IMG/VR virus record: IMGVR_UViG_3300025408_000002
Length of the DNA stretch: 64,000 nucleotides
Direction: 5' to 3' (one strand)
Origin: an uncultured virus (IMG/VR IMGVR_UViG_3300025408_000002)
Taxonomy: Duplodnaviria; Heunggongvirae; Uroviricota; Caudoviricetes
Below are positions 46,112 to 61,708 of this stretch, in pieces. Made by a program: the position numbers and the translations under genes. Position 1 is the stretch's first letter. Each line of letters opens with the position of its first letter. Below the pieces are notes generated by a model. The model ran no database searches, was not told where the DNA came from, and was given only the letters and a program-made list of their open reading frames with translations.

Positions 46112-49100
46112 ATGAACCCACAGGAACCTCGCCTCGCGATTGCCCGCTCCCTGCGTCAGTACGTGCCGCACCTCGCGGATATGTCCGACGATGATGTGTT
46201 GCGCAGCATTGATGAAGTGTATCAGTCCGGCGACCCCGCGTATATCGGCAATCTGGTGAACGACCTGCGCCGCTACGTGCCTCGGTATTCGAAGATGGAC
46301 AGCACTTCGGTGGCGAACGAGATGGGCGGGTACTTCCAGGCGCCGCAGGCCCCGGCGGGCAGCCGTGTGCAGCCCGCGCGTCCGGTGGGTGATTACATGA
46401 CGGAAGAGTGGACGCGGATGTTCGGTGGCGAGGAACCGACGGCGCCGGGCATGCTCAACATCATGCGTGGAGTGACCGCGCCGTTTGTTCCGAGTGTGGA
46501 CATTGCATCGGCATCGACCCCGGCGAAACCGAAGCGCTTGTTCCCGACGGCCACTGCCGGCGCGTCCGCAGCACCGACCAAGCCGGAGCCGGGCAAGATC
46601 AGGACCGCGAAGGACGTTCAGGAAAAGGAATTCGACAAGCAGATCGGCCAGGCGCAGAAACGCAAGGCGGCGCGGCTTTTCCAACTGCCCGCACTCTCGC
46701 CGATAGAGCAGCAGGGTGGTGTGGCGTTGCCCTCGGAAACCATCCCTCCCGTGAACTTCGGCAGTCCCGAGCAGGCATTCGGTGATCCAAACGTGGCGCC
46801 GATGGCGGCTGGCATCAATCGCTCATTCCCCATACCCGGCGCGCAGCCGGACGGATGGGGTGATGTGCCTACGGAACTCCGCCTCTGGCCCGATCCCGCA
46901 CCCGCGTCCATGGTCAGCGGTGACATCGGGCGCACCTTCGAAGGTGAAGATCCCAAGGCCATGTTCAAGCGCGTGCGCGAATTCTCGGCGGGCAAGGTCG
47001 CGGAATTGGAGCGCCAACTCGCAGCGATCCCGCCGGCAAAGTGGCGCACGGACCCGTCTGCAGGTGCATACGAGGTGCACGATCAGTATTCGGGAAAGCG
47101 CCGCGCGCTGAATGAAGCACTCACGCAGTATCGCGCCATCCTCGATATGCCCGAGGACGACAACCCCGCCGAAGTGCTGCGAGGGCTCTACGCGGGATTC
47201 ATGGAGGCGCCGGAAGAACTCTTCCCGTTTGTGGGTGATGCCATCGCGGGGCTTCGCTCGTGGCGCATGGGTGATGTGGAGCGGCGCGTTGCCGAAGGGA
47301 AGGCCACGCCGGAAGAGAAGGAAATGTTCGATGCGGAAGTGGTCCGCAAGCAGTTCGAGGCGGAAACGCGCGCGCCGTTCTATCGTGGCGGCCAGATGGT
47401 GGGTCCGATGCTCCCGTATGCGGGAAAGTTCAAAATACTCGAACCTGTGCGGGACAAGGCGGAGCAGTTCATATCGCGGCAACTGTTCCGCGCGTTCGGT
47501 GGGAAACGCGGTGTACGCGATATGTCGCGTATCGTCGCGCCGATTGTCGGCGGGGCTACGGCAGGCGCGGTCGATGTTCCCGGTATCGCTCGTGGCATGG
47601 CCGAGCGCATGCAAGGGCAATACGAATACGGCCTGTCTCCCGCCGGCGAAGTCGTCTACCGTCAGATCGCCAAGGGCGACCCAATACTCGACGCCGCACT
47701 GAAGGGCCTGGCTTCCAACATGGCGGAGATGGGCACCGAGTCCGCGGGCGAATCGCTGATCGCACTAAAGCGCGCGCTCGTCGGGCGCTACATGCAGAAA
47801 GCCAATATCCGGGCTACGGACGTTGAGAAAGCCGTGGCGAAGGTGAAGGAGGGAATTGGCTGGCAGGGTATCATTTATGAAATCGCCGAGGAAGAGCTCA
47901 ACGAACCGATTCAGGCATGGATCGACAATCGGCAGTACGATGACCCCATCACCAGCGAGAAGGGCCGGGACCGGCTTCTTACGGAATTGGTGGGTATCGG
48001 ATTGTTCGGTTCGCCGTTCACCATCGTGAACCAGGCGGGACGCATCGCAAATCGTCGTGGCCTCGGGAAACCGAGCGATGTCAAGGCACAGGCAATGGCT
48101 GTCGCGGGTGCGGTGAAGCAGGCACCGGAAAAGACCGGATACTACGATCCCGCTACCAATACGTTCTATTCGCCCGAGCAACTTCAAGGAATGCGGCGAG
48201 TAGGAGAATTTCAGGACCGTCTCGCGCAAGGAAAAAGCGAACTCGAGCAGGCGCGTGGACCGCAAAGCTTCGGCAGCGAAAAGCGCATGGGCCGCGCTCC
48301 GAACCGCGCGGGCGCGGCATCGCAGCAGGCGGCACCGGAAATGCCGCCGGTATCGCAGTTCGAAGGTGTGGAAGGCGATTTGATCGCGCCGTTTCTCGGA
48401 CAGTCCATTACCATACCGGGTGTGGACAGCGGCAGGCCTGTGACCGTGGCGGAGCAGCAGGACGATCCTTCCCTCGTGACATTGCGGCTTTCGGACCAGA
48501 GCTTCCGCGCGCCCGGCACCACTGTGCAGATCGGCCGTCAACAGTTCTTCAACATGATGGCGAACGTCGACAGACCGATTGACGCCGCGAGCGACAAAAC
48601 GGGCGGTGCGAAACCTGCAACTCCGCAGGGTGCAACAACTTCCGGCAACGCGGGTATTGACACCGGACCGGACGGCGCACGCACGGATTTTCAGGACTAT
48701 CTCAAGAGCACGGGGCTTACCCCCGCCCAGCATTACGCGGCCAGCCGCAGCGAGAAGGACATCATCCCGCAGCCCAAGGCGGACCTCGACCGGGTGTATC
48801 TCTCGAACAGCCCCATCCACGGGCAGGGCGTTTTCACCTACAACGAGCACCCCGCCGGCGATGTGATAGCGACGGCGCTGGACGAAAAGGGAAACCGCAC
48901 CAACTTCGTCGGGCGGTACATCAACCATTCCAACGACCCGAACGTGAGTGTGGAGCAGCAGCAGGATGGCAGTTACGCGATTGTGGCGCGACGGCCCCTC
49001 GGCGAAGGCGAAGAACTCACGATGGATTACCGGCAGCAGGAATCGATAGCAGGCGGCATTCTCGATGTGTCGAAGCCCGCCGCCGCGCCTTCCGAGGCAG

Positions 49101-52100
49101 CACGGAAAACGCGCGAACGCGCGGACATCGTCAAGCGCCTGCGATCCGGCGAACTCGATCCGGTTGAAGCGGTGCGGATGTACGAGAAGGATCACCCGAA
49201 GCTCCGCACGTGGGCGGCATGGAACGAAGCGCGAAAGCCGATCAACACCCTTACGTACAAAGGCAAGAAGGCCAATGTGTTGCGCTCGCCGGATGGCGGC
49301 TATGATGTGATCGGTGTGAAAGGCAATGAATTCCTCGGCAATCTCAGCGATCAAGAGTACGCGAAGATGCTGGATACGCGCGGGAAACGCAGTGCCGTGG
49401 CGCAGAAAAAGGCGGGAGAGATGGTGCTCATCACGCCGGAAGCGCTGGAAAGCATGCCCGCCACCAAGGCCATTTTCGGTTCGGGCGTGGGCGACATCAC
49501 CGGCGATATGCTGGACAATGTGAAGGTGGGCTCGAACCCGGTACGCGCCAAGAACCTCGTGAAAAAGGATGGCCCGCTCACGTATGACAAAATCCGGGAG
49601 CGCTTGCTGGAATCCGACAATCCTACGCATCAGGCCTGGCTGGCTGAAGGGTTGGATTGGGAGGACATCTACGACAAGGCCTTGGAGGAGATCGCGCAGT
49701 ACCAGGGCGGGAAGATTCCCAAGGCGCCCGTGACTGAACCCGACAACCCCATGGCGGACGTGACCACCTACCTCGATTCGTTGAAGCCCGACGAATTTGT
49801 GCGTGTGTGGCAGAGCGTGGGCGACGAACAGAAGAAACAGTACCTCGGCGATGACTACCAGGACATGACCGTTGACGAGATCGCGCAACTCAAGCGCGTG
49901 AACGTCAATGGTGAGTGGTACGACGTGAAGCAGGAGGGCGGACCCGAAGGCGAACTCATTCTCGAGGATGGCACAACGCTGTCCTTCGACAGAGTATTCT
50001 CAGCCGACGTGAAACTGCCTGTGCAGGATGTGGAAAAAGGCACCGCGGCCGCGTCCCAAGCTCCCGACACGGTGCGCGCGGCGGAAGACACGGCTGCGGC
50101 GCCCATTTCCAATGAGGGCTCGCTCTTTGGCGACATTCCCCAAGGTTCGCGAAAGCTCACGCCCGAGCAGGAATTCGCAACGAAGAATCCGGGACAGGCG
50201 GCACAGGGGGCCCGCAACGCCCGGCAGGAGGAGCGGCGCAAAGCCGTAGCGGACGCGCGTGCACGCATGGCGAAGCTCAAGGAGGAATTGGCCCTCCATC
50301 GCCGCGAATTGCCGCTGGCGCGACCTGAGCAGAAGCCGAAAGTGCAGGATGCTATCCGCCAGACCCTGGCGAAAATGCGTGCGCTGCAGAAGGTGATCGG
50401 CGACGCGCCGATCGTTGAAGAGATCGAGAAGCAGAACGCGCCGGATATGTTCGCGGTGGAGGAAGGACCGGCGGCGGGACAGACGGTGGCGGCCGATCCG
50501 AGCGAGGGACAGAAGGAAGCGGGCAACTACAAGAAGGCGCATGTACGTGTGCAGGGTCTCGACATCAGCATCGAGAACCCGAAGGGAACCACGCGCAGCG
50601 GTGTCGACCGCGATGGCAAGCGCTGGGAAACCGAGATGAAGAGCGACTACGGTTACATCCGTGGCACGGAGGGGAAGGACAAGGACCACATCGACGTGTT
50701 TATCGGTCCGAACCCCGACAGCGATTTCGTTCTCGTGGTGAACCAGAAGAACGAGGACGGGAAATTCGACGAGCACAAGATCATGCTCGGCTTCGGTTCG
50801 CGCGAAGAGGCGGAAGAGGGTTATCTGGCAAACTACGCGCCGAACTGGCTGAAAAAGCAGGGCGGGAAGCTCGATGCCGTGGAAACCAACGTCGCCGACA
50901 TGAAGGACTGGCTGCGTAGCGGGGAGACGAAGAAACCGCATCCCGCAAATGATCCGATGGTTCTTCCTGTGACAGAAACACTATCTCCTGAATTGCTTGC
51001 ACGAGACTGGCGGAAACGTCGCGGGGAAAAGGTCGTATTGAATGTTCTCGGGAGCCAACGGCCCGGTGAATATACGGTGGCGGAAGATCAAAGTGGGCTT
51101 ACTCAAAAGGAGAGGCATGTCGTTCGATTGGTGGCGCCGGATGGTGGCATACGCTTGGTCGATGCACGAAACATCCGTGAGATAAAGCGTGAGGAGCAGG
51201 CGCTCCCCACCCCTGCCGCCGAACTCACGCCCCAGGAGAAGGCGAAGCAGGAACTCGAAGAACTCAAGAAGAAATTCCTCCAGCAGACGGGGAACACCCT
51301 CACCGCCGGTATTGATCCGGCCGCCATGGCGACAGCCGTGCAGATCGCGCTGAAATACACCGAACTCGGTGTGTACAAATTCGCCGATTTCGCAAAGGCG
51401 GCATACGAGCTGGTAGGCGACGCCATCACGCCGTACCTGAAAGGCGCGTACATGGCCGCGAAGCAGCATCTCGACCGCGAAGCGCGGAAGCAGATGGACA
51501 CCGAGGACGCGGTGGACGATGCGAACCTCGATGCGCTGTTGTCGTCGGCCGAGCAGCAGACCCCGCCCAAGCCGGAAGCACCCGCGAAGAAGCCGGTGGT
51601 TGAATCTGCCAGTTTGAAACGCCCGAATAATTGGCTGAGAAACAGCGCGGTCAGAAATGTCGTCTACCATGGTACAGCCGACGATATTGATGTGTTCAGC
51701 AATGACGGTCTGGCGAATGGTGGAGTATGGGGAACCGCGTTCTACTTGACGGCGGACCCCACGGATGCAGAGGATTGGGCGGCGGGAGCCGTGGACGTGC
51801 GCGGAGGATCACCCAGCATCATGCCGCTGTGGGTTCGTATTGAGAATCCGTTCTATATCGACCGGCCGGAAGCGCGACGCGCGGCACTGGCCGAAGCAAG
51901 GAAGCAAGGGATTGATATTCCCGCCAGCGTACTCCCGTGGCTCGAAGGCAAAGCGGAGCAGGGCTTGGATGCTTCGATATGGGCGGAAGAGAATCTTGCT
52001 GACATAGTGAAAGCCATGGGGCACGATGGCATCATCGGCACAATCGACGGTGTTGAAAACTACGCCGTTTTCAGCAACGAACAGATCAGAAGCGCAACGG

Positions 52101-55100
52101 CAAATACATCCGATACGGAAAGCGAGAGCCCGTCAGAGCCGAAAGAGCCCGCGAAAACCCCCGAAAAGCAGCCGGCAGCGACGCAGGCGGCCCCCGAATC
52201 CCGCGAGGGTGCGAACGACAAGGACCCGGACGCCCCGACGCAGTTCAGGGAAGGAGATCGCGTGGTGTTCAACTCCAACGCTTTCGATGTGTACCGTGGG
52301 CGCCACGGTGTTATCGTCGACGTGTCAATCGAGACCTTTTCGATGGTCCCAATGTTTGGAGCCGGTACGAGCGAGAGGATGCGCTCGGTGCGCTACGAAG
52401 TGAAAACCGATGGCGGGTTGCTCGCCATCTCCAACGCCGACGATTTGGGATTGGAAGAGGGCGCCGCACCGGAAGTGGTGCCGGATGTGAAGGTCAGTAA
52501 AGGCGAGATCGAACCGCAATACATGGCGCCTGCGGATGTGGTCAGGCAGATACGCCGTCATCAAAACACCATCGACAACTTGAAATCGGCGGCATCCCGC
52601 GCGCGTAAGCAAGAGATCATACGACGATATGAGGTTGATGCGCGATGGCACGGAGAGAAGCGGGACGATTTGATCGAAGCACTGCGGAAGTGGGGCACAG
52701 AGCACCCCAAGGAGCTGCGTGACATCGGCGAGGACGCAACCCTGCGTAAGCATGGATTGGGTGATTTACTTGGTGAATCAACGCCGGCAGCCGCACCATC
52801 CGCCAAACCCGCAGGGGCAGAGCCGCCCGCAGCAGATCAGATGGAAGCGGCGCGGCGCGTGCTGGCCGCAGCCGGATTGAAGGTGACCGCCACCACGACG
52901 AACAACGGCAAGCCGGTGTGGGAAGTGAGTGGCAACACGAAAACGCATCTCGACCACATGAAAGCGCTGCGTGGTCGCTGGTACGGTCCGAAAAAAGTGT
53001 GGTCGTTCTACGCGGCCGACCCATCGATCGATTTGGCGAAGCGCCTGGACCCTACCGCGATGACGGCGCGCCCGGCAACCCCGGCAGAACCGACACCGCA
53101 GGCGACGCCAGCGGTGGACACCAATCGCTCGATAGTGAAGCGCGTGGAATCGGCGACCACCGAATCCGCGCGAAGCAACATCTTTGCGGAGCTGGGAAGC
53201 AAGGCCGTTCCAGGTTTGCGAATGCAGGAGCACGAGGAAGCCGGACGCTGGGTGTATCTGGTTGCGAAAGGAGAAGTCGCGCAGAGCGAATTCGACGCAA
53301 AAATAGAGGAGTGGCGCAGAGAGAACCGGATTCGGCAGAACGAGCAGACGCCCAAGGATACCCCGGTCATGCCGCCGGAGGAGCGGCCCATTCCCACCTT
53401 CGCCACGGCGCCGCGCACAGAGCCGGTGGAACGCATGGAAGCAATCGAATCACTGCGCGATGCGGTGTATGAGCGATTGTCGATGGGCCTGTCCCTCAAC
53501 AATACGATGTTCTGGCAGATGGCGGACAGGGCCTTTGGTGCTTCTCGCGCGGAGGACGGCTACGATGTGAAGGACGCATACGACGCACTGGAAGCGGCGG
53601 TGAACACCTACATCATCGAGAAGGAACTCTTCCCCGGACGCAACATCGCGGAGACGCGCGCGGTGCTCGAACGTATTCGCCAAGTGCTGCCGCTCATTCC
53701 GACGCAGAACGTGAGAACGGCCGAAAGCGACGAATTCCAGCAATTCTCCACCGTTCCTCACATCGCACTTCTTGCGAACTGGCTGGCGAATCTGCGCAGG
53801 GATGATGTCTACCTCGAACCCAGCGCGGGTGTGGGTGGACTGGCATCATTCGCGGTTGGCGACGTTGCGGAAATCATCCTCAACGAGCTCAGCGACCGCA
53901 GGGCGGATATTCTCGAGCAAACGCTCGGCGAAGTGGAGAACGGCCCGAAGATGCAGTTCTTCCGCGAGAATGCTGAACAGCTCGACAACATCCTCGATGA
54001 CAGCGTTGTGCCGACGGTGGTGGTGATGAATCCGCCATTCTCGTCCACCGCGGGCGCCGTGCAGGGCGAGCGCGACACGATGAATTCGACGCTCCATCTC
54101 GATCAGATGTTGCGGCGCTTGCCGGAAGGTGGTAGGTTGGTGGCGGTGCTTGGCGAGGGAGCGACGATGAGCGCGGAGACCACGGACCCGGCCGGACGGC
54201 AGCCGACCGGCGCGAAGCTCGCACCGTGGTGGCGCGAGACGATGAAAAAGTACAATGTCCGCGCGAATGTGGGCATTGCGGGCAAGGAATACGCGAAGTA
54301 CGGCACCGGATGGCCGGTGCGCATCGTCGTGATCGACAAGGACGGTCCGACGCCGGGCGGTGGTGTGTATCAGAAATTCTACAACACCATCGAAGAGGCA
54401 CTTGCTGATAGCGAACTCCGGAGGATACGTGATGAAAGGCCAGCAACTGAACTACCCGATCAACCAGCAGGCGCTGGAAGCGCTGCGGGAACTCAGGGAA
54501 CCGGCGGACAGAAACTACCCACCGATACTCGACCTGATGTGGTGGGGACTGGAGAACAACGTCCCGCTCCAGGACGAGGAGATGCGGGAGGACTTCAAGA
54601 TGTTCTTGGTGAAGATGATGGATCGCCCGGAAAACGTAATGCAGTTCCTGACGGACGGGCAGCCCGAGAACGCGAACTTCAGCAGCAAGGATCCAAAGGA
54701 ACGCGCAAGGGAAGCGCTGGACCTGCTCTGGATGGCAACGACCCCCGATTCCGAGTCGATACCGGAAATCTGATGGAATACACGGTGGACCCGGACAGGT
54801 CCGCCGATGCGCAGCAATCTGACAACCTCGACAGCCGATTCGACCGCTACGTGCCGTCGCGCATGAGCATTGCCGGTGCGAAGCCGCATCCGGGCAATAT
54901 CGTGGAAAGCGCCGCCATGGCGAGCGTGAAAGCGGTACGGCCGACATACGTGCCGATGTTCAGCAAGGAGTTTGTTGAATCGGGCATTCTCTCCGAAGTG
55001 CAGCTCGAAGCGGTGATTTACGCGGGACAGGCGCACGAGCAACACATCGACGATGGGTTGCGGCGTGGGTTCTTCATCGGCGACGGTACGGGTGTGGGCA

Positions 55101-58100
55101 AGGGCCGCGAAATCGCGGGGATCCTGCTCGACAACTGGAATCAGGGACGCCGGCGCCACCTCTGGATTACCAAGAACCAGAAATTGCAGGCGGACGCGGA
55201 GCGCGACATCCTTGCGGTGTTCGGCGAAAAGGCGGGTGGATTGCTGCACAACCTCAGCGATACGAAGCTGGATCAGAACATCGCCATCGATGAAGGGATT
55301 CTCTTCATCACGTACAACACCCTCATTCAGGAAAGCCGGACCTCCGCCGGGCGCACGCGCCTGAAACAGATCGTTGATTGGCTGGGCAAGGACTTTGAAG
55401 GTGTTATCGCCTTCGATGAAGCCCACAAGATGGGTACCGCGCTCGACATGAAGGGCAAGCGCGGAGTGAAGAAGGCATCGCAGACGGCCATCAAGGCAAT
55501 GGACATGGTGGCGGCATTCCCGGAGGCGCGCGTGGTGTACGCCTCCGCCACCGGCGCCACCGATCCGACAAACCTTGGCTATCTCGACCGCATTGGGTTG
55601 TGGGGAGCAAGCACCGAATTCCCGACGAAGCTCAAGTTCGTGGAGGATGTGACGGGCGCGGGCGTGGCGATGATGGAGTACGTTGCCCGCGATATGAAGG
55701 CGATGGGCCTGTATCTCGCGCGGTCCCTGTCCTACGAGGATGTAACCTTTGAAACTCTCACGCACGCACTCAGTCCCGAGCAGCGGGAAATCTGGAACAC
55801 GCTGAGCGATTCCTGGGCGGTGGTCCTCGACAATATCAACGATGCGCTCGAACTCACGGCCAGCAATTCCGATGGTAAGGTGGATGGTCGTGTGAAGGCG
55901 CGATTGATGAGTCAGTTTTGGGGCGCGAATCTGCGGTTCTGGAATCAGATACTGTTGTCGATGCAGCTCCCGTCCATGATCGCCGACATTCACAAGCAGA
56001 TAGACGCGGGTAACAGCGTCCTCATTCAGCTCGTGAACACCTACGAGGCGGCGCAGGAATCGAAGTTGTCCACGGCCGACAAGGAGGACCTGGAAGCGCT
56101 TGACATGACACCGCGCGAATCGTTGATGGCGATGGTGGAGCGCACCTTCCCCGTAAACGAGTACCGGGAGATTGAGGACGAGAACGGCAACAAGCGCATG
56201 GAGCTCGTGCTCGACAGCAAGGGCAACCCCGTGCAGAACCGCGAAGCCCTGCGCATGCGCGAACGGCTTCTGGATCGTCTCTCGCAAATCGTGATACCGG
56301 ACGCGCCGCTCGATGCCATTATCACCGAGTTTGGCGCGGACATGGTTGCGGAAGTGACCGGGCGCAGCCGTCGCGTGGTTCGTACATACGATACTAAATC
56401 CGGGCGGCAGAAAACCATCATCGAGAAACGGAGCAGCGCGAAGGCGGACGTGGAGGCCGACGATTTCATGAACGACCGTCGGAAGATTCTCATTTTCTCC
56501 GATGCCGGCGGCACCGGACGGTCTTATCACGCGGATCGCGCGGCGAAGAACCAGCGCAAGCGCATTCATTACGTGTTTCAGCCTGGCTGGGTGGCGAACA
56601 TGGCCATTCAGGGCATGGGACGCAGCCACCGCACCAACCAGGCGGCGGCACCGCATTACGTGCTCGTTACCACCGACCTCGAAGGTCAGAAACGATTCAT
56701 TTCCACCATCGCGCGGCGGCTTTCGCAACTCGGCGCACTCACGCGCGGGCAGCGCGATGCCGCGGGCGGCTCCCTGTTCAGCGAGCGTGACAATCTCGAA
56801 AGCGTGGAATCGCGCGAAGCGTTGCGCCAACTTTACGTCGACGTGTGGCGCGGCGTAGTCCCGAATCTCACGCTCGCGGAGTTCGAGAACAAAACCTCGC
56901 TGAAACTCACCGACAAGGACGGAGCGCTCCTTGAAACGCTGCCGCCGATGTCGCAATTCCTGAATCGCCTGCTCAATCTCGGTGTCGACACGCAGAACCT
57001 GATATTCCAGGCGCTGTCCTCCCGCATCGATGCGAAGATTCACGAAGCCACGCTGAACGGTACCTTGGACCTTGGCATGGAATCGGTAAAGGCGGAACGC
57101 GCGGAAGTGGCAACCTCGCGCATTGTGCACACCGATGAGCGCACCGGCGCGAAAACGCGGTACCTGCGCATTCGTCTGTTCACGAAGGCGGTACGGCGCG
57201 AATGGGAAACGAGCGGCGCGGAAAAGGCGGAGAAGTGGGTGCGCAACATCCGCAGTGGTCGTGTGTACGCGGTGTTCCCGAGCACGAATTATACTGATGC
57301 GAAGACGGGCAAGGTGCTGAAACGCAACGTGCTCGCAAGCGTGACCGGCACGCAGTATCTGCCGACAACCGACGTTGACGATGCGACCAAGTACGAGATT
57401 CTGTCGAAGAACGAGGCGAAGGCGGCATGGAAAAAGGACTATGAAGCCGCTCCCGAACTCAAGGAATCGGAACTCCACATGATTACCGGCGCGTTGCTGC
57501 CGGTGTTCTCCCGCCTTCCGAGTGGCGGCAGTATCAAGGTGCAGCGCGTAAAGCTCGATGACGGGACCAGCATTCTCGGCCGCGTGATCCTGGAAAAGGA
57601 CGTGAACGATATGCTCCGGCGCCTCGGCGCGGAAGGAGAGCAAATCGAGTACGCGCCCGAGGAAGTGGTTGCACGGATCGTCAATGACAACTACGAGGCG
57701 GAGTTCGCCAACGGCTGGCGCATGCGCCGGCGCACGGTGAACGGTCAGGATCGTATCGAGTTCATCAATACGTCCTTGAAATCGGGTGATTCGCAACTTC
57801 TGCAGAACGCGGGAGTGGTGTTCGAGCGGCAGAGCTACGAGTCGCGACACTACCTTCCCACGGGACGGCGCGGCGAGGAAGTGCTCAAAAAATTGGCGGG
57901 TCTCAACAAGAAGATCATTGCCATGTATCCGCCGGAAACAGGTGAAGGCGAAGTGGATGCGAAAAGCGCCGTTATCCACCGCGCGCAACGCCAAAGCACC
58001 GGAACCTCGCCCACCCCTCCGCCAACGGCAATCCCGACACGGCGCTACTCCGTTCCGCAGCCGGCGGCATGGACGCAAACGCCGACGACCACGCGCGAAG

Positions 58101-61100
58101 CGCAGCGCCTGGAAAAGCGCATGCGCGGCGACAGCAAAGGCGAGCGCATCGGTATGCGGTCAATCGTGGATTGGCTCGGGCGCCAGGTGCACGCGGAACT
58201 GCGCGTCGGCAAGGAGCAAACCACGCGGCGCAATCCCGCGCATTTCGAGAGCGACAGCGCGATCATGCGGTCCCGGTATCCGTCAAGCGCGGCGTACAAC
58301 ATGCACGAGATGGGACACGCGATCAGCGGCTACCTGCGCGATCGGCACCCGAACCTGTTCCGCGGCATGGTCGATGATTTGAAGGCGCTCGCCACGGCTC
58401 CGGGAAGTCTGGCCTCGGCAAACTCGGCCGAAGAGGGCTTCGCGGAATGGCTGCGGTTGTTCGTGACCAATTACGGCGCCATCGACGGTCTTCCCGTGAC
58501 ACAGAAGATCGAAACCGTACTCGAGAAGGATTCGCCCGAACTCATGGCAGCGCTGCGCGATGCGAACCGATTGCACTTCCTGCATGCGCAACGCGGCGCC
58601 GTCGCCATACGCAACTCAATCAACAACGACAAAGGTCTGCCGCCTCCGTTCTGGTCGCGCGCGCTCGACAGCATCGACAAGATTCTCTTCGAGGGTGTAT
58701 CCTCCCGCCACGCCATTGAACATATTCGGCGCATGGTATGGCGGCAGTGGAAGCACGGCGCGGGTATTCCGCGAATGACGGGAAAGACCTGGGCGGAGTA
58801 CGGCCGCATGATCCGCGAATATCTCGCCGGGCGAAAAAGCGCGGTGAAGCAGGCGCGGGAGTGGGAGAAGCGTATCGCGAACTCGCCGGGCAACATGATG
58901 AGCGCCTACGTGACCGTGCTTCGCATCCCGCAGGAAGTGGATTACTTCATTCGCGGTACCGGACGCAAGGAACACAGCGGACAGCGTGTAATCGCCACGG
59001 GCGACAAACGCATCCTCACCGATGAAGCCATTGATACTCTGGAGAAAGCCGGCTACACCATCCCCGTGGAGATGCGCGACACATCGAGCATGGGCAAGAG
59101 CTGGCGCGCGCGGCACGGCGATTACATCTTCTTCCACAATCGTCTCATCGCCGATGTGGTGACGGATGTCGGTCCCGACAATTGGGAGGCATTCGAGCAG
59201 TACGTGTGGGACAAGACCGATTTGTACCGGCATGAGAAATTGGGAATGGACTACGCCGGATACAGCGACGGCATCAGCCCCGAGGACTTGCGCAGGCAGG
59301 TGGCGGACGCCGAAAAGGCGCATCCCGAGTGGAAGGATCGGTACAAGGAACTCAACGACTACATGGACAACCTTGCCGTGATCGCGGTGGCGGGCGGGCT
59401 GATTACCGCCGACCAGGCAGCGGCGATGAAAAAGAAGCACGAGCAGTACGTCCCTCTTCTCAAGGAGCGCGAGCGTGAGGAAAACGGCTTCGGTTCATCC
59501 ACCGGCGTGCAGATCAGCGCAAAGTACAGGCGGGCGCACGGGTCCGAACTTCCGAAAATCCCGCTTCTGAATTCCATCGAGATTCGCACCCGGCAAGTGC
59601 TGAGCGCGTACTATCACAATCGTATGGCTCTCGCCCCCGTGCGGCTCGCGGAGATGACTTCGAACGACAACACCGTGCCGTACGATGTCCGCAAGCTCGT
59701 TGAGCGCATGGCGGTGCGTTTGCGGCTCGATACGAAGAAAATGGCGACCCTTGGCGAAGAGGAAGCGCGGAAGGTGATCGCCGAATATCTCACACAGCAA
59801 CTGCATGCCGAAATCCGCGCGCGCGAAGGCGAGGACGCGGACATTCCCGAGGAGATCAAGGTCACGGCCAGCGATGTCGTGGTGCATTGGTCCGGCATGA
59901 GCATTTTCCGCACCACCGATCCGCGCGCGGTGCACGTGATCGCGCCCATGGTCGACGGAGAGCGCGCGTTCTATCAGATCGAGGATCCCATTCTCTATGA
60001 TTTCTTCGCGCGCAGCACAAAGCCGGTGGGGAAGGTGGCGCGCGGCATTCAACGGTGGGTGCTGCCCGTGGTCGCGCCGTGGAAGCGCCAGATTACTCAG
60101 ACGCTGCGATTCGTCCTGGGCAACATCCCGCGCGATACAGTCACGGCCATGTTCACCGGGGAAGGCATGAAAAGCTTGATCCCCGCGTACTATCACCTTA
60201 CCGGACTGATATACAAGCTCTCGGGCAAGGTGCCGGACACGGCCACAACCGGGCAACTCCTGGCGCGGTCGTTTGAAACAGCGTTCGATCCCGCACAGCT
60301 CGTGCGCATGAACAAATTCAAGCAGACCCTGATGGAAGGGTTGATGGTGCCGGGTTGGGGCGTGATGACGCGCGGCGAGCGCATTATGGCGATTATCAAG
60401 GACGCTCCGGGTAAACTCGCAACGCTGTTCATGAAGCCGACGGAGCTGATCCTGTGGGCAACGGGACAGCGTGCACTCGCCGAACTCTCCGAGGAAAGCG
60501 CCCGACTCGGTGCGTATCGGCAGGCGAAAAACGAGGGATACAGCGACGAGGAAGCGCAGATGCGCTACGACATCATCACCGGACTGTTCGCGGATCGTCC
60601 GGGCGACAACGACATCGCCACATTCGTGCGCGCTCCCGGCTTCCTCAACCCGACGATGCAGATCATGTACGGCTGGCTGTCGCGGCTGACCGATCCCGAC
60701 CCTGGTGTGCGCAATTTCCATTACCTCAAGATCGGGTATATCGGCGCTCTGACGGCGCTGGGTTGGGCCGTGAACATACTGCTCATGGGCGATGACGAGT
60801 ACGAAAAACTCAAGGAACGCCCGGACGAGGAGCGCTTCCACTTCATGCCTGTCGGCGGGCTTTTCAAGGTGCCGTTCGACAATGGGCCGCTCGGCGCGAC
60901 GCAAATGTTCGTGTGGAACATGATGGACCACATGGCTGGCGGCGACCCGGTTGAGGCGCGAAAGCTCGCAACGCAGACGCTGAAGAAGATGAATTCCCTG
61001 CCGTATACGCCAACGGAATTCCTCTCCCCGCAAATCGTGACGTGGGTGGAGCTGATGGCGAATTACAAGTTCTATTGGGACAAGCAGATCGTACCGCAGT

Positions 61101-61708
61101 TCATGCTCGCGCTGCCTGCGGAAGAGCAGTATTACACCACCACGAATGAGATGTACGTGCGCATGGGTGAATACCTCGGCATTTCGCCACTGAAAATCGA
61201 GCACGCCATTCGCAGCGGCGTTTCCCCGCAGATCGACGAAACTTTCCGGCTTTACAGCATGATATTCGGCGGCGAACCGCTGCGGAAGGTGGATCAGATT
61301 CCCGGCATCTCCACACGCATGCAGCACGAACCAATGGGATACAACAGCCGCAGCGTGCAGCAACTCGCCGAAAAGGCGGAGAAATTCCGCTCGGTAGTGT
61401 CCTCGCTCAAGAAGCACTTCGGTATGCCCGACAACATGCGACTCTCGGACGCGGCGGATTGGATGTACAGCAATCCGAACGAACTCACCGAGCGGCAGCG
61501 GGAGCAATTCGACGAAGCGGTGAAATACTATGATTACTACCGCGCGTTCCAGACCGACGAGGACAGCGTGGAGAGATGGTACGAACAGGCCAAGCAGGCG
61601 CGGAAACGCGCTATCGAATCACGCGACCCCAAGGATTGGGAGACCGTGGACGAGTACCTGCGCGGCATGACGGAAAAAGCACGACTCGCATTATCCAACA
61701 ATCAGTGA
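46112..61708 (+). CDS. Giant polyvalent (DarB-like) ejection protein, 5198 aa: SET, InPase-like, ART-like, N6-MTase, Strawberry-notch SF2 helicase, zincin, LPD38-like
   Basis: SPIHGQGVF/RYINHS/ELTMDY; ISIENPKG/DKDHIDVFIGP/FDEHK; VVYHGT/FYLT/GHDGII; LEPSAGVGGLA/NPPF; GDGTGVGKGRE/FDEAH/SATG/QGMGRSHRTNQ; HEMGH. Confidence 0.9.
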   Translation: MNPQEPRLAIARSLRQYVPHLADMSDDDVLRSIDEVYQSGDPAYIGNLVNDLRRYVPRYSKMDSTSVANEMGGYFQAPQAPAGSRVQPARPVGDYMTEEWTRMFGGEEPTAPGMLNIMRGVTAPFVPSVDIASASTPAKPKRLFPTATAGASAAPTKPEPGKIRTAKDVQEKEFDKQIGQAQKRKAARLFQLPALSPIEQQGGVALPSETIPPVNFGSPEQAFGDPNVAPMAAGINRSFPIPGAQPDGWGDVPTELRLWPDPAPASMVSGDIGRTFEGEDPKAMFKRVREFSAGKVAELERQLAAIPPAKWRTDPSAGAYEVHDQYSGKRRALNEALTQYRAILDMPEDDNPAEVLRGLYAGFMEAPEELFPFVGDAIAGLRSWRMGDVERRVAEGKATPEEKEMFDAEVVRKQFEAETRAPFYRGGQMVGPMLPYAGKFKILEPVRDKAEQFISRQLFRAFGGKRGVRDMSRIVAPIVGGATAGAVDVPGIARGMAERMQGQYEYGLSPAGEVVYRQIAKGDPILDAALKGLASNMAEMGTESAGESLIALKRALVGRYMQKANIRATDVEKAVAKVKEGIGWQGIIYEIAEEELNEPIQAWIDNRQYDDPITSEKGRDRLLTELVGIGLFGSPFTIVNQAGRIANRRGLGKPSDVKAQAMAVAGAVKQAPEKTGYYDPATNTFYSPEQLQGMRRVGEFQDRLAQGKSELEQARGPQSFGSEKRMGRAPNRAGAASQQAAPEMPPVSQFEGVEGDLIAPFLGQSITIPGVDSGRPVTVAEQQDDPSLVTLRLSDQSFRAPGTTVQIGRQQFFNMMANVDRPIDAASDKTGGAKPATPQGATTSGNAGIDTGPDGARTDFQDYLKSTGLTPAQHYAASRSEKDIIPQPKADLDRVYLSNSPIHGQGVFTYNEHPAGDVIATALDEKGNRTNFVGRYINHSNDPNVSVEQQQDGSYAIVARRPLGEGEELTMDYRQQESIAGGILDVSKPAAAPSEAARKTRERADIVKRLRSGELDPVEAVRMYEKDHPKLRTWAAWNEARKPINTLTYKGKKANVLRSPDGGYDVIGVKGNEFLGNLSDQEYAKMLDTRGKRSAVAQKKAGEMVLITPEALESMPATKAIFGSGVGDITGDMLDNVKVGSNPVRAKNLVKKDGPLTYDKIRERLLESDNPTHQAWLAEGLDWEDIYDKALEEIAQYQGGKIPKAPVTEPDNPMADVTTYLDSLKPDEFVRVWQSVGDEQKKQYLGDDYQDMTVDEIAQLKRVNVNGEWYDVKQEGGPEGELILEDGTTLSFDRVFSADVKLPVQDVEKGTAAASQAPDTVRAAEDTAAAPISNEGSLFGDIPQGSRKLTPEQEFATKNPGQAAQGARNARQEERRKAVADARARMAKLKEELALHRRELPLARPEQKPKVQDAIRQTLAKMRALQKVIGDAPIVEEIEKQNAPDMFAVEEGPAAGQTVAADPSEGQKEAGNYKKAHVRVQGLDISIENPKGTTRSGVDRDGKRWETEMKSDYGYIRGTEGKDKDHIDVFIGPNPDSDFVLVVNQKNEDGKFDEHKIMLGFGSREEAEEGYLANYAPNWLKKQGGKLDAVETNVADMKDWLRSGETKKPHPANDPMVLPVTETLSPELLARDWRKRRGEKVVLNVLGSQRPGEYTVAEDQSGLTQKERHVVRLVAPDGGIRLVDARNIREIKREEQALPTPAAELTPQEKAKQELEELKKKFLQQTGNTLTAGIDPAAMATAVQIALKYTELGVYKFADFAKAAYELVGDAITPYLKGAYMAAKQHLDREARKQMDTEDAVDDANLDALLSSAEQQTPPKPEAPAKKPVVESASLKRPNNWLRNSAVRNVVYHGTADDIDVFSNDGLANGGVWGTAFYLTADPTDAEDWAAGAVDVRGGSPSIMPLWVRIENPFYIDRPEARRAALAEARKQGIDIPASVLPWLEGKAEQGLDASIWAEENLADIVKAMGHDGIIGTIDGVENYAVFSNEQIRSATANTSDTESESPSEPKEPAKTPEKQPAATQAAPESREGANDKDPDAPTQFREGDRVVFNSNAFDVYRGRHGVIVDVSIETFSMVPMFGAGTSERMRSVRYEVKTDGGLLAISNADDLGLEEGAAPEVVPDVKVSKGEIEPQYMAPADVVRQIRRHQNTIDNLKSAASRARKQEIIRRYEVDARWHGEKRDDLIEALRKWGTEHPKELRDIGEDATLRKHGLGDLLGESTPAAAPSAKPAGAEPPAADQMEAARRVLAAAGLKVTATTTNNGKPVWEVSGNTKTHLDHMKALRGRWYGPKKVWSFYAADPSIDLAKRLDPTAMTARPATPAEPTPQATPAVDTNRSIVKRVESATTESARSNIFAELGSKAVPGLRMQEHEEAGRWVYLVAKGEVAQSEFDAKIEEWRRENRIRQNEQTPKDTPVMPPEERPIPTFATAPRTEPVERMEAIESLRDAVYERLSMGLSLNNTMFWQMADRAFGASRAEDGYDVKDAYDALEAAVNTYIIEKELFPGRNIAETRAVLERIRQVLPLIPTQNVRTAESDEFQQFSTVPHIALLANWLANLRRDDVYLEPSAGVGGLASFAVGDVAEIILNELSDRRADILEQTLGEVENGPKMQFFRENAEQLDNILDDSVVPTVVVMNPPFSSTAGAVQGERDTMNSTLHLDQMLRRLPEGGRLVAVLGEGATMSAETTDPAGRQPTGAKLAPWWRETMKKYNVRANVGIAGKEYAKYGTGWPVRIVVIDKDGPTPGGGVYQKFYNTIEEALADSELRRIRDERPATELPDQPAGAGSAAGTQGTGGQKLPTDTRPDVVGTGEQRPAPGRGDAGGLQDVLGEDDGSPGKRNAVPDGRAARERELQQQGSKGTRKGSAGPALDGNDPRFRVDTGNLMEYTVDPDRSADAQQSDNLDSRFDRYVPSRMSIAGAKPHPGNIVESAAMASVKAVRPTYVPMFSKEFVESGILSEVQLEAVIYAGQAHEQHIDDGLRRGFFIGDGTGVGKGREIAGILLDNWNQGRRRHLWITKNQKLQADAERDILAVFGEKAGGLLHNLSDTKLDQNIAIDEGILFITYNTLIQESRTSAGRTRLKQIVDWLGKDFEGVIAFDEAHKMGTALDMKGKRGVKKASQTAIKAMDMVAAFPEARVVYASATGATDPTNLGYLDRIGLWGASTEFPTKLKFVEDVTGAGVAMMEYVARDMKAMGLYLARSLSYEDVTFETLTHALSPEQREIWNTLSDSWAVVLDNINDALELTASNSDGKVDGRVKARLMSQFWGANLRFWNQILLSMQLPSMIADIHKQIDAGNSVLIQLVNTYEAAQESKLSTADKEDLEALDMTPRESLMAMVERTFPVNEYREIEDENGNKRMELVLDSKGNPVQNREALRMRERLLDRLSQIVIPDAPLDAIITEFGADMVAEVTGRSRRVVRTYDTKSGRQKTIIEKRSSAKADVEADDFMNDRRKILIFSDAGGTGRSYHADRAAKNQRKRIHYVFQPGWVANMAIQGMGRSHRTNQAAAPHYVLVTTDLEGQKRFISTIARRLSQLGALTRGQRDAAGGSLFSERDNLESVESREALRQLYVDVWRGVVPNLTLAEFENKTSLKLTDKDGALLETLPPMSQFLNRLLNLGVDTQNLIFQALSSRIDAKIHEATLNGTLDLGMESVKAERAEVATSRIVHTDERTGAKTRYLRIRLFTKAVRREWETSGAEKAEKWVRNIRSGRVYAVFPSTNYTDAKTGKVLKRNVLASVTGTQYLPTTDVDDATKYEILSKNEAKAAWKKDYEAAPELKESELHMITGALLPVFSRLPSGGSIKVQRVKLDDGTSILGRVILEKDVNDMLRRLGAEGEQIEYAPEEVVARIVNDNYEAEFANGWRMRRRTVNGQDRIEFINTSLKSGDSQLLQNAGVVFERQSYESRHYLPTGRRGEEVLKKLAGLNKKIIAMYPPETGEGEVDAKSAVIHRAQRQSTGTSPTPPPTAIPTRRYSVPQPAAWTQTPTTTREAQRLEKRMRGDSKGERIGMRSIVDWLGRQVHAELRVGKEQTTRRNPAHFESDSAIMRSRYPSSAAYNMHEMGHAISGYLRDRHPNLFRGMVDDLKALATAPGSLASANSAEEGFAEWLRLFVTNYGAIDGLPVTQKIETVLEKDSPELMAALRDANRLHFLHAQRGAVAIRNSINNDKGLPPPFWSRALDSIDKILFEGVSSRHAIEHIRRMVWRQWKHGAGIPRMTGKTWAEYGRMIREYLAGRKSAVKQAREWEKRIANSPGNMMSAYVTVLRIPQEVDYFIRGTGRKEHSGQRVIATGDKRILTDEAIDTLEKAGYTIPVEMRDTSSMGKSWRARHGDYIFFHNRLIADVVTDVGPDNWEAFEQYVWDKTDLYRHEKLGMDYAGYSDGISPEDLRRQVADAEKAHPEWKDRYKELNDYMDNLAVIAVAGGLITADQAAAMKKKHEQYVPLLKEREREENGFGSSTGVQISAKYRRAHGSELPKIPLLNSIEIRTRQVLSAYYHNRMALAPVRLAEMTSNDNTVPYDVRKLVERMAVRLRLDTKKMATLGEEEARKVIAEYLTQQLHAEIRAREGEDADIPEEIKVTASDVVVHWSGMSIFRTTDPRAVHVIAPMVDGERAFYQIEDPILYDFFARSTKPVGKVARGIQRWVLPVVAPWKRQITQTLRFVLGNIPRDTVTAMFTGEGMKSLIPAYYHLTGLIYKLSGKVPDTATTGQLLARSFETAFDPAQLVRMNKFKQTLMEGLMVPGWGVMTRGERIMAIIKDAPGKLATLFMKPTELILWATGQRALAELSEESARLGAYRQAKNEGYSDEEAQMRYDIITGLFADRPGDNDIATFVRAPGFLNPTMQIMYGWLSRLTDPDPGVRNFHYLKIGYIGALTALGWAVNILLMGDDEYEKLKERPDEERFHFMPVGGLFKVPFDNGPLGATQMFVWNMMDHMAGGDPVEARKLATQTLKKMNSLPYTPTEFLSPQIVTWVELMANYKFYWDKQIVPQFMLALPAEEQYYTTTNEMYVRMGEYLGISPLKIEHAIRSGVSPQIDETFRLYSMIFGGEPLRKVDQIPGISTRMQHEPMGYNSRSVQQLAEKAEKFRSVVSSLKKHFGMPDNMRLSDAADWMYSNPNELTERQREQFDEAVKYYDYYRAFQTDEDSVERWYEQAKQARKRAIESRDPKDWETVDEYLRGMTEKARLALSNNQ
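54432..54773 (+). CDS. Nested out-of-frame small acidic protein (113 aa) inside the giant gene
   Basis: GGAGGA RBS at 54420-54425; MKGQQLNYPINQQALEALREL...LDLMWWGLEN...AREALDLLWMA reads as a folded helical protein while the host frame is a low-complexity linker. Confidence 0.7.
   Translation: MKGQQLNYPINQQALEALRELREPADRNYPPILDLMWWGLENNVPLQDEEMREDFKMFLVKMMDRPENVMQFLTDGQPENANFSSKDPKERAREALDLLWMATTPDSESIPEI

Follow-up and report, generated by a model that had tools for sequence, protein, structure and literature searches.

A small conserved gene very probably nested out of frame in the methylase-helicase linker of giant polyvalent proteins of phages and plasmids

The 64,000-nucleotide stretch of DNA considered here (the window; IMG/VR record IMGVR_UViG_3300025408_000002, an uncultured virus of the Caudoviricetes) carries a giant open reading frame (ORF) for a polyvalent protein, in which an adenine-methylase-like domain is joined by a low-complexity linker to a Strawberry-notch-type helicase (Table 1). 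Between these two domains, wholly within the giant ORF, on the same strand and in its +1 frame, lies a second, much smaller ORF. The initial annotation of the window had pointed to a GGAGGA ribosome-binding site, an ATG and an acidic ORF of 113 aa in another frame, and all three are present as it described them, the predicted product having an isoelectric point (pI) of 4.4 and a net charge of -10. It had also placed this ORF exactly where the main frame turns into a G/A/P/R-rich linker, which is likewise correct: over its 114 residues the linker has 22 G, 12 D, 12 A, 11 R and 11 P, and is thus D-rich as well. We conclude that the small ORF is very likely a genuine nested protein-coding gene and that the main-frame linker is its off-frame shadow; the analyses below establish for it a start signal, a conserved family at the same site, purifying selection and a confidently predicted fold.

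Table 1. Features of the nested gene and of the giant ORF that hosts it, in window coordinates
Feature	Position	Strand	Basis or remark
Nested gene, 113 aa and stop, +1 frame of the giant ORF	54432..54773	+	ATG 54432, TGA 54771-54773
Shine-Dalgarno sequence GGAGGA, 6 nt before the nested ATG	54420..54425	+	main-frame codons Arg-Arg-Ile
Main-frame linker, residues 2774-2887, low-complexity, stop-free	54431..54772	+	off-frame reading of the nested gene
Main-frame Met2888 ATG, overlapping the nested stop (TGATG)	54773..54775	+	sequence
Giant polyvalent-protein ORF, host of the nested gene	46112..61708	+	5198 aa
Adenine-methylase-like domain, about residues 2416-2773, ending ...SELRRIRDE	53357..54430	+	alignment with relatives
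AAA_34, first ATPase lobe of the Strawberry-notch-type helicase	54884..55801	+	Pfam E 1.1e-112
Helicase_C_4, second lobe of the Strawberry-notch-type helicase	56306..57082	+	Pfam E 2.6e-83

Within the window itself, the composition of the codon positions switches at the linker. The GC content at main-frame positions 1, 2 and 3 is 0.82, 0.60 and 0.33 in the linker, as against 0.64, 0.44 and 0.77 in one flank and 0.61, 0.41 and 0.79 in the other, and with this collapse of the main-frame third-position GC (GC3) it is the nested frame that bears the high GC3 usual for the genome. A coding-signature scan of the whole giant ORF gave its strongest flag at the nested stretch, where the main-frame GC3 descends to 0.29, and the third frame has seven stops across the same stretch. 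When the nested ORF was redrawn synonymously using the gene's own codon usage, the main frame acquired a mean of 3.7 stops and was open in 1.5% of the trials.

Relatives of the host protein were collected with its residues 2450-3150, which recovered 1294 proteins at E <= 0.001 among 1396 candidates scored. The spacing between the methylase and helicase anchors in the best-scoring relatives is about 101-209 residues, mostly 101-146, and the linkers inspected in these are low-complexity and mutually dissimilar. The closest of the relatives (P0006, 55% identity) shows the same main-frame ending as the window, LDGNDPRFRV, itself the off-frame reading of a conserved nested-frame motif. An exhaustive representative search with the nested protein yielded one true match, a 113-aa protein called on a 905-bp contig (P0003, 43% identity, E 2.8e-16); a second match, a 721-aa repeat protein (P0004, E 1.8e-4), is spurious judging by its sequence. 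Several further searches were empty: the junction had no tblastn match in phage records, the nested protein none in 22 other genomes of the host's family, and the junction none in 400 further genomes from the phylum (E <= 1e-20), while pattern scans of viral and genome contigs with a single protein or with two sequences likewise returned nothing.

The initial annotation had proposed tblastn as a test for conservation of the alternative frame. Conservation did not emerge with the window protein itself as the query, but it did when the junction was searched against plasmids, 543 records of which matched. The four closest (two Methylomonas plasmids, one of Methylotuvimicrobium alcaliphilum 20Z, and Thioflavicoccus pTHIMO01) all carry, at the corresponding site, a +1 ORF of 114-117 aa, preceded by a GGAG-type Shine-Dalgarno (SD) sequence and starting with ATG, and the translations of these ORFs are protein-like and conserved among themselves. 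A plasmid-type nested protein matched only four plasmid records by tblastn. A profile of the plasmid-type sequences recovered 94 small proteins (E 4e-39 to 1e-15), mostly of 99-127 aa and for the most part called on contigs of 0.5-5 kb. Three of these proteins (P0189, P0214 and P0217) are hybrids, which begin in the nested frame and pass into the main frame or else change frame two times. The simplest explanation is a frameshift or a misassembly in copies of the giant gene, and the three illustrate how gene callers trip over this locus.

Among species-representative genomes a scan found 26 loci, from Methylococcales, Nitrosomonas, Syntrophobacteraceae, Chromatiaceae and others. Every one has the ORF with an ATG, which in 25 of the 26 lies wholly inside a long main ORF, and the third frame at these loci is open for only 0-61 codons. 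At one locus on a contig of a metagenome-assembled genome (L034), the main frame, 1881-2444, ends inside an intact nested ORF, 2239-2592; either the contig is misassembled or the methylase-helicase dyad is naturally split there.

The phage loci repeat this architecture. Scanning viral contigs with the helicase lobe as the query yielded 80 loci, and both anchors were present in 78 of these. All 78 have a main frame that is open across the linker, 77 have a +1 frame open over 113 codons or more, and in most the main-frame GC3 falls in the linker. In the 77 phage loci with a start at the methylase end, this start is ATG in 75 and GTG or TTG in two, and the SD score is at least 4 in 64. The nested start most often lies 8 nt ahead of the point where the methylase anchor ends, and the nested stop falls at -5 to +46 nt relative to the helicase start in most loci. 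The products are 89-145 aa long in phages (median 122) and 113-117 aa in genomes and plasmids, a range that includes the 113 aa of the window. The window has the nested stop and the main-frame ATG overlapping as TGATG at 54771-54775, a classic coupled stop-start layout at the point where the helicase part begins. It could let the helicase part be translated on its own, or it could be left over from a time when the helicase had its own gene; the overlap is not conserved in the relatives examined, in which the position of the nested stop varies with respect to the helicase start.

The phage products have in common the motifs LNxxPLNQxA, LYxLQLxxWGLE, PxxAMxFL and PEDAAxxLL. A profile built from 65 unique phage ORFs, with the window left out, scores the window protein at 56.0 bits (E 3.5e-19, for one comparison), as against 6.2 bits for the reversed window protein and -2.8 bits for the main-frame linker. 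The same profile gives 55.4 bits to P0003 and 59 bits to two plasmid members. In pairwise phmmer comparisons of the window protein with the phage ORFs, the best E is 6.6e-9, and 22 of the 65 fall at E < 1e-3. Profile, place, frame, length and architecture all fit, and the window protein belongs to a new family of small proteins situated at the linker of the dyad.

This family marks one clade of the dyad and not the dyad as a whole, as is indicated by the mere four plasmid records matched by tblastn and by three alphaproteobacterial plasmid relatives (L035-L037, from Gemmobacter, Rhizobium etli and Martelella), which all have a shorter linker of another kind and no nested ORF. Their main-frame linker is ordinary and protein-like with a GC3 of 0.61-0.68, and their +1 frame is arginine/serine-rich junk with a stop. 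Stops in this frame of homologous linkers, which the initial annotation had named as contrary evidence, are thus found in these three relatives; in the clade with low-complexity linkers of about 100-145 aa, the outcome favors the nested gene. At some phage loci (L039-L041, L048, L049, L054 and L106) a nested ORF of similar length and position lacks the LNxxPLNQ motif. The L039, L048, L054 and L106 types score near zero against the window protein, and one of them (L048, 1645-1992) matches the C-terminal end of DUF6178 below threshold (23.7 bits where 25.5 are required, E 2e-5); these motif-lacking ORFs may be a second, unrelated nested family or very divergent members of the first.

A single non-nested copy was found, a 141-aa ORF at 2381-2806 of a 4.3-kb metagenome contig (L003). 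It scores 59.8 bits on the phage profile (1.4 bits when reversed), has a normal GC by position of 0.66/0.35/0.72, and lies outside any long ORF, the -1 frame being open for only 88 codons. As read from their sequences, one of its neighbors codes for a small protein of secreted type, and the other, on the opposite strand, resembles genes for terminase small subunits. A second scan of viral contigs for free-standing copies returned nine loci, seven on contigs already known and two new ones that are both nested.

The two frames are under different selective regimes, as can be seen at several evolutionary distances. In three Methylococcales plasmids, the differences in the flanks are on main-frame position 3 (0.52-0.61 per site versus 0.04-0.20 at the others), and in the overlap the order is main-frame position 1 > 2 > 3, which is the same as nested position 3 > 1 > 2. 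The frame-specific substitution test put forward with the initial annotation came out in its favor: across 340 pairs drawn from 30 genome and plasmid loci, the median ratio of nonsynonymous to synonymous differences per site (pN/pS) is 0.32 for the nested frame versus 1.65 for the linker, with the nested value lower in all 340, and across 28 phage pairs of 40-97% identity the medians are 0.46 versus 1.19, with the nested value again lower in every pair. Main-frame stops are absent in all 66 unique phage ORFs, although the median expectation from synonymous resampling is 5.07 stops (the median probability of having none being 0.003). The frame test within the lineage of the window itself consisted of close variants in public sequencing runs, namely contigs of four runs from four other studies, over 53900-55300. 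These have 23 substitutions and no insertions or deletions. All 18 variants in the flanks are at main-frame position 3, and 17 of them are synonymous. Three of the five inside the nested ORF are silent at nested position 3 and alter the linker residue (T>A, T>A and G>R), the remaining two being R27K and D48N, so that main-frame position 3 is hit by one of the five nested-ORF variants versus 18/18 in the flanks (Fisher p = 5.6e-4). These comparisons show that the nested frame is under a purifying selection distinct from that on the host frame, which is kept only stop-free.

The helical character that the initial annotation ascribed to the product is borne out by an AlphaFold2 model of the window protein (68-sequence alignment), in which six helices, at residues 2-6, 9-20, 31-41, 49-64, 66-73 and 88-103, are predicted with a mean pLDDT (per-residue model confidence) of 87.3 and a pTM (predicted template-modeling score) of 0.81. 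A plasmid member (P0125), folded without the window protein from 66 sequences, gave a pLDDT of 91.0 and a pTM of 0.85, with helices at residues 3-6, 10-21, 33-43, 55-63, 66-74 and 90-108. Matched through the hhalign register, without superposition of the models, the two proteins are predicted to share a six-helix architecture with the helices at aligned places. Foldseek searches of both models against PDB and BFVD returned no match at E <= 0.001; the best VIA Z scores, 4.8 and 4.0, are to an unrelated chain and within the noise for helical proteins. A sequence search of PDB with the nested protein gave nothing meaningful and the ESM Atlas no usable match. Pfam, PHROGs and NCBIfam have no family for the window protein or for 14-16 members, save the one sub-threshold DUF6178 match of a divergent type, and the exact window protein is absent from a collection of 15 billion proteins.

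We propose that the nested protein is made by internal initiation on the giant mRNA, at an SD sequence and ATG embedded in the conserved main-frame motif that closes the methylase. In the window this motif reads ...RRIRDE and in most relatives LLEGIR[ND][DE]R, the codons of which supply both elements of the signal: CTG-GAG-GGx gives GGAGG and AAT/GAT-GAx gives ATG. The product would be a free, acidic, all-helical protein of about 13 kDa. Ribosomes coming from 46112 would read the same DNA one base earlier, yielding a low-complexity and presumably disordered tether that need only lack stops for the methylase and the helicase to remain one polypeptide. Because the nested frame holds the amino-acid constraint and a free-standing copy exists, it is the small gene that appears to be primary and the linker reading that appears to be derived. 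Hence, the description of the gene as "overprinted" in the initial annotation stands as regards dual coding, and its emphasis is better reversed.

As to function, it is a possibility of some weight, albeit a little short of an even one, that the small protein acts in trans on the surrounding methylase-helicase pair, whether as a stoichiometric partner, an assembly factor or a brake. Such a partner is favored by the fixed position of the gene, which is retained while the other domains of the host protein vary. The initial annotation had held that the gene is genetically locked to the two enzymatic domains, which is what we find; its further suggestion of an inhibitor, chaperone or DNA mimic goes beyond these results, in which the acidic, helical protein had no detected match in fold or sequence to such families. 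The overlap would ensure that the small protein is inherited and expressed together with an enzyme that protects incoming phage or plasmid DNA.

More tentatively, the arrangement might have originated from an operon of methylase, small gene and helicase whose parts became joined when the small gene was read through in another frame, a scenario we raise because the linker has the length of the small gene, a free-standing copy exists, and the window has the TGATG junction. The most far-reaching version, namely an ancient three-gene unit welded by off-frame read-through, with a tether that throughout the clade is an off-frame translation of a still-functional gene and with a product of that gene that is an obligatory trans-acting subunit or brake, is more doubtful than not. 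If true, it would represent a general route by which gene fusion gives rise simultaneously to a disordered linker and to a nested gene locked in place.

A number of points weigh against the nested gene, or against the role and origin suggested for it. The nested protein of the window has no tblastn match in phage and plasmid records, and it is a divergent member of the family, with 13.7 bits on the plasmid-type profile and, by hhalign, an E of 7e-5 and a probability of 63%; its membership rests on the broader phage profile and on position. The alignment behind its AlphaFold2 model is dominated by plasmid-type members. The pairs compared for pN/pS are non-independent and the estimates are biased in overlapping frames, the direction being uniform nonetheless, and the variant test of the window's lineage rests on five substitutions in low-depth contigs. 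No methylase-helicase enzyme lies beside the free-standing copy within its 4.3-kb contig, no extant three-gene arrangement of methylase, small gene and helicase was found, and nothing among the results physically ties the small protein to the methylase or the helicase. Then there is chance. The pattern GGAGG-N4-9-ATG has 18 matches in the window versus 13.0 +/- 3.5 in shuffles, and is thus not rarer than expected, and the +1 frame of a hydrophilic linker is expected to be open anyway, because such a linker has few T at codon position 2.

Taken to their end, these last two observations would make the small ORF a by-product, open by default and preceded by a coincidental ribosome-binding site and ATG, with nothing made or selected. 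The argument from default openness is sound, SD-ATG patterns are indeed as common as chance in the window, and when the synonymous codons of the nested ORF were permuted among themselves the main frame was still open in 37% of the trials. What lifts the ORF above chance is the frame switch in the coding signature together with the conservation, selection and fold evidence from relatives. The +1-frame amino acids are conserved across plasmids, genomes and phages at a pN/pS well under that of the linker frame; the 56-bit profile match, set beside 6 bits for the reversed control, contradicts a by-product, as do the confident predicted folds; the variants of the window's phage avoid altering the nested protein; and relatives with the other type of linker have junk-like, stop-containing +1 frames. 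The by-product reading is already contradicted by the selection and conservation tests, and we give it practically no chance. It is also very improbable that the helical segment is a domain of the giant protein itself, entered and left through two programmed frameshifts or through paired assembly errors, such that the glycine-rich linker is never made. An SD-like sequence lying a few bases upstream can stimulate frameshifting in bacteria, as in prfB and dnaX, and the three hybrid proteins mentioned above do switch between the two frames. However, the family has its own ATG at its N-terminus in 75 of 77 phage loci and in all 30 genome and plasmid loci, and its own stop too; the main frame is kept open against expectation in 66/66 cases, which would be pointless were it unread; the position of the nested stop is variable, and no common shift site is visible, although no dedicated search for slippery heptamers was made. 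Moreover, independent assemblies of the window's phage have no indels, the free-standing copy has its own start and stop, and longer forms fused in frame were sought and not found, a weak argument in itself.

A different objection accepts the small protein as real and takes it for an independent counter-defense effector, for instance an acidic DNA mimic directed against restriction enzymes, that hitch-hikes in the polyvalent gene. Phages and conjugative plasmids carry small acidic proteins, Ocr and ArdA among them, that counter restriction by mimicking DNA, and the nested protein resembles them in being small and acidic, in occurring in phages and conjugative plasmids, and in being plausibly expressed on entry. 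Acidity is uniform in the plasmid-type family (89 members, with medians of 4.3 for pI and -11 for net charge, the latter comparable to the -10 of the window protein), but it is not universal, the phage ORFs having a median net charge of -5 and a range of -18 to +6. No fold or sequence similarity of the nested protein to any solved protein, known DNA mimics included, was detected, and its charge, much lower than that of Ocr, is moderate and speaks against a DNA-mimic effector. The host protein is indeed a collection of counter-defense domains, by its Pfam matches and by what the available text of PMC5512222 says of such proteins, and the free-standing homolog is in a phage-like contig with no such enzyme nearby. 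Nevertheless, the strict position between methylase and helicase, while other domains vary, fits a tie to this pair better, and we regard an independent effector as unlikely, if not negligibly so.

Dual coding of this kind has partial precedents. The Rz/Rz1 spanin genes of phage lambda are close in layout to what we describe, with one gene embedded in the +1 frame of the other. In both systems a gene is contained entirely within another on one strand and brings its own start signal, and both products come, or in the dyad would come, from one mRNA. In Rz/Rz1 both frames are constrained and the products are known partners; in the dyad the overlapping part of the host frame amounts to no more than a low-complexity tether free of stops, and there is no sequence relation between the two systems. 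Classical overprinting places a young and often disordered protein over an old constrained frame. The nested gene is like the overprinted genes of small viruses, and the few same-strand overlaps proposed in bacteria, in being a case of dual coding detected through frame-specific selection. The roles of the frames are nonetheless inverted, in that the nested product is constrained and predicted to be well folded, the host frame is presumably disordered and is unconstrained, and a free-standing homolog of the nested product exists.

Polyvalent proteins are among the largest and most widespread counter-defense proteins of phages and conjugative plasmids, and their methylase-helicase pair has so far been read as a simple fusion, the conserved protein in its linker having been missed in every annotation examined. 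The nested protein is invisible to gene callers, being called almost only on short contigs that cut the big ORF. At over 100 loci it offers an unusually clean natural case of dual coding in bacterial DNA elements: one frame is constrained in its amino acids and the other has only to stay open, which explains where a "low-complexity linker" comes from. The start codon of the nested gene can, moreover, be removed without altering the amino acid read in the host frame.

The host ORF itself belongs to this class of proteins. Its Pfam domains are SET, InPase, ART-PolyVal, AAA_34, Helicase_C_4, LPD38 and ResIII, of which the first three lie within the first 2773 of its 5198 residues and AAA_34, Helicase_C_4 and LPD38 within the last 2311. 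The methylase-like domain, which makes up the roughly 360 residues directly before the linker, is 44-46% identical to 15 plasmid and genome relatives in the alignment, where the NPPF and SAGxG motifs are invariant, and it receives only sub-threshold scores from the Pfam methylase models. The AAA_34 region is 49-52% identical to its relatives. Genes for terminase, portal and major head protein lie upstream of the giant ORF, and the window is part of a 4.69-Mb bacterial assembly; together with the dyad domains, this identifies it as a phage contig or a prophage in which a polyvalent protein with a methylase-helicase dyad is encoded. The methylase is that of the "methylase-helicase dyad" of polyvalent proteins named by Iyer et al. 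2017 (PMC5512222), and, as far as the available text of that paper goes, the host gene has the make-up of the archetype, DarB of phage P1: an NPPF methylase N-terminal to a SWI2/SNF2-clade ATPase or helicase, in a phage as judged by the head genes, and in the company of conflict domains such as InPase, ART-PolyVal and LPD38. It departs from the picture given there, that of a plain fusion, in having a nested gene in the junction. In the available portion of that text, the words "overlapping", "linker" and "low-complexity" are not present and no nested gene is mentioned, and our literature search found no description of a gene nested in the linker of the dyad.

Two other irregularities of the reading frames were seen in the giant ORF. 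An open frame of 1187 codons runs on the minus strand at 54515-58078, antisense to the helicase region; such a frame is expected opposite a long GC-rich gene, and it has no visible sign of coding. A second and far milder dip in the main-frame GC3 occurs at 50852-51270, where it is 0.47-0.61 versus 0.68-0.72 at position 1. The ORF list has no long +1 ORF at this place, and the dip is probably due to another low-complexity spacer.

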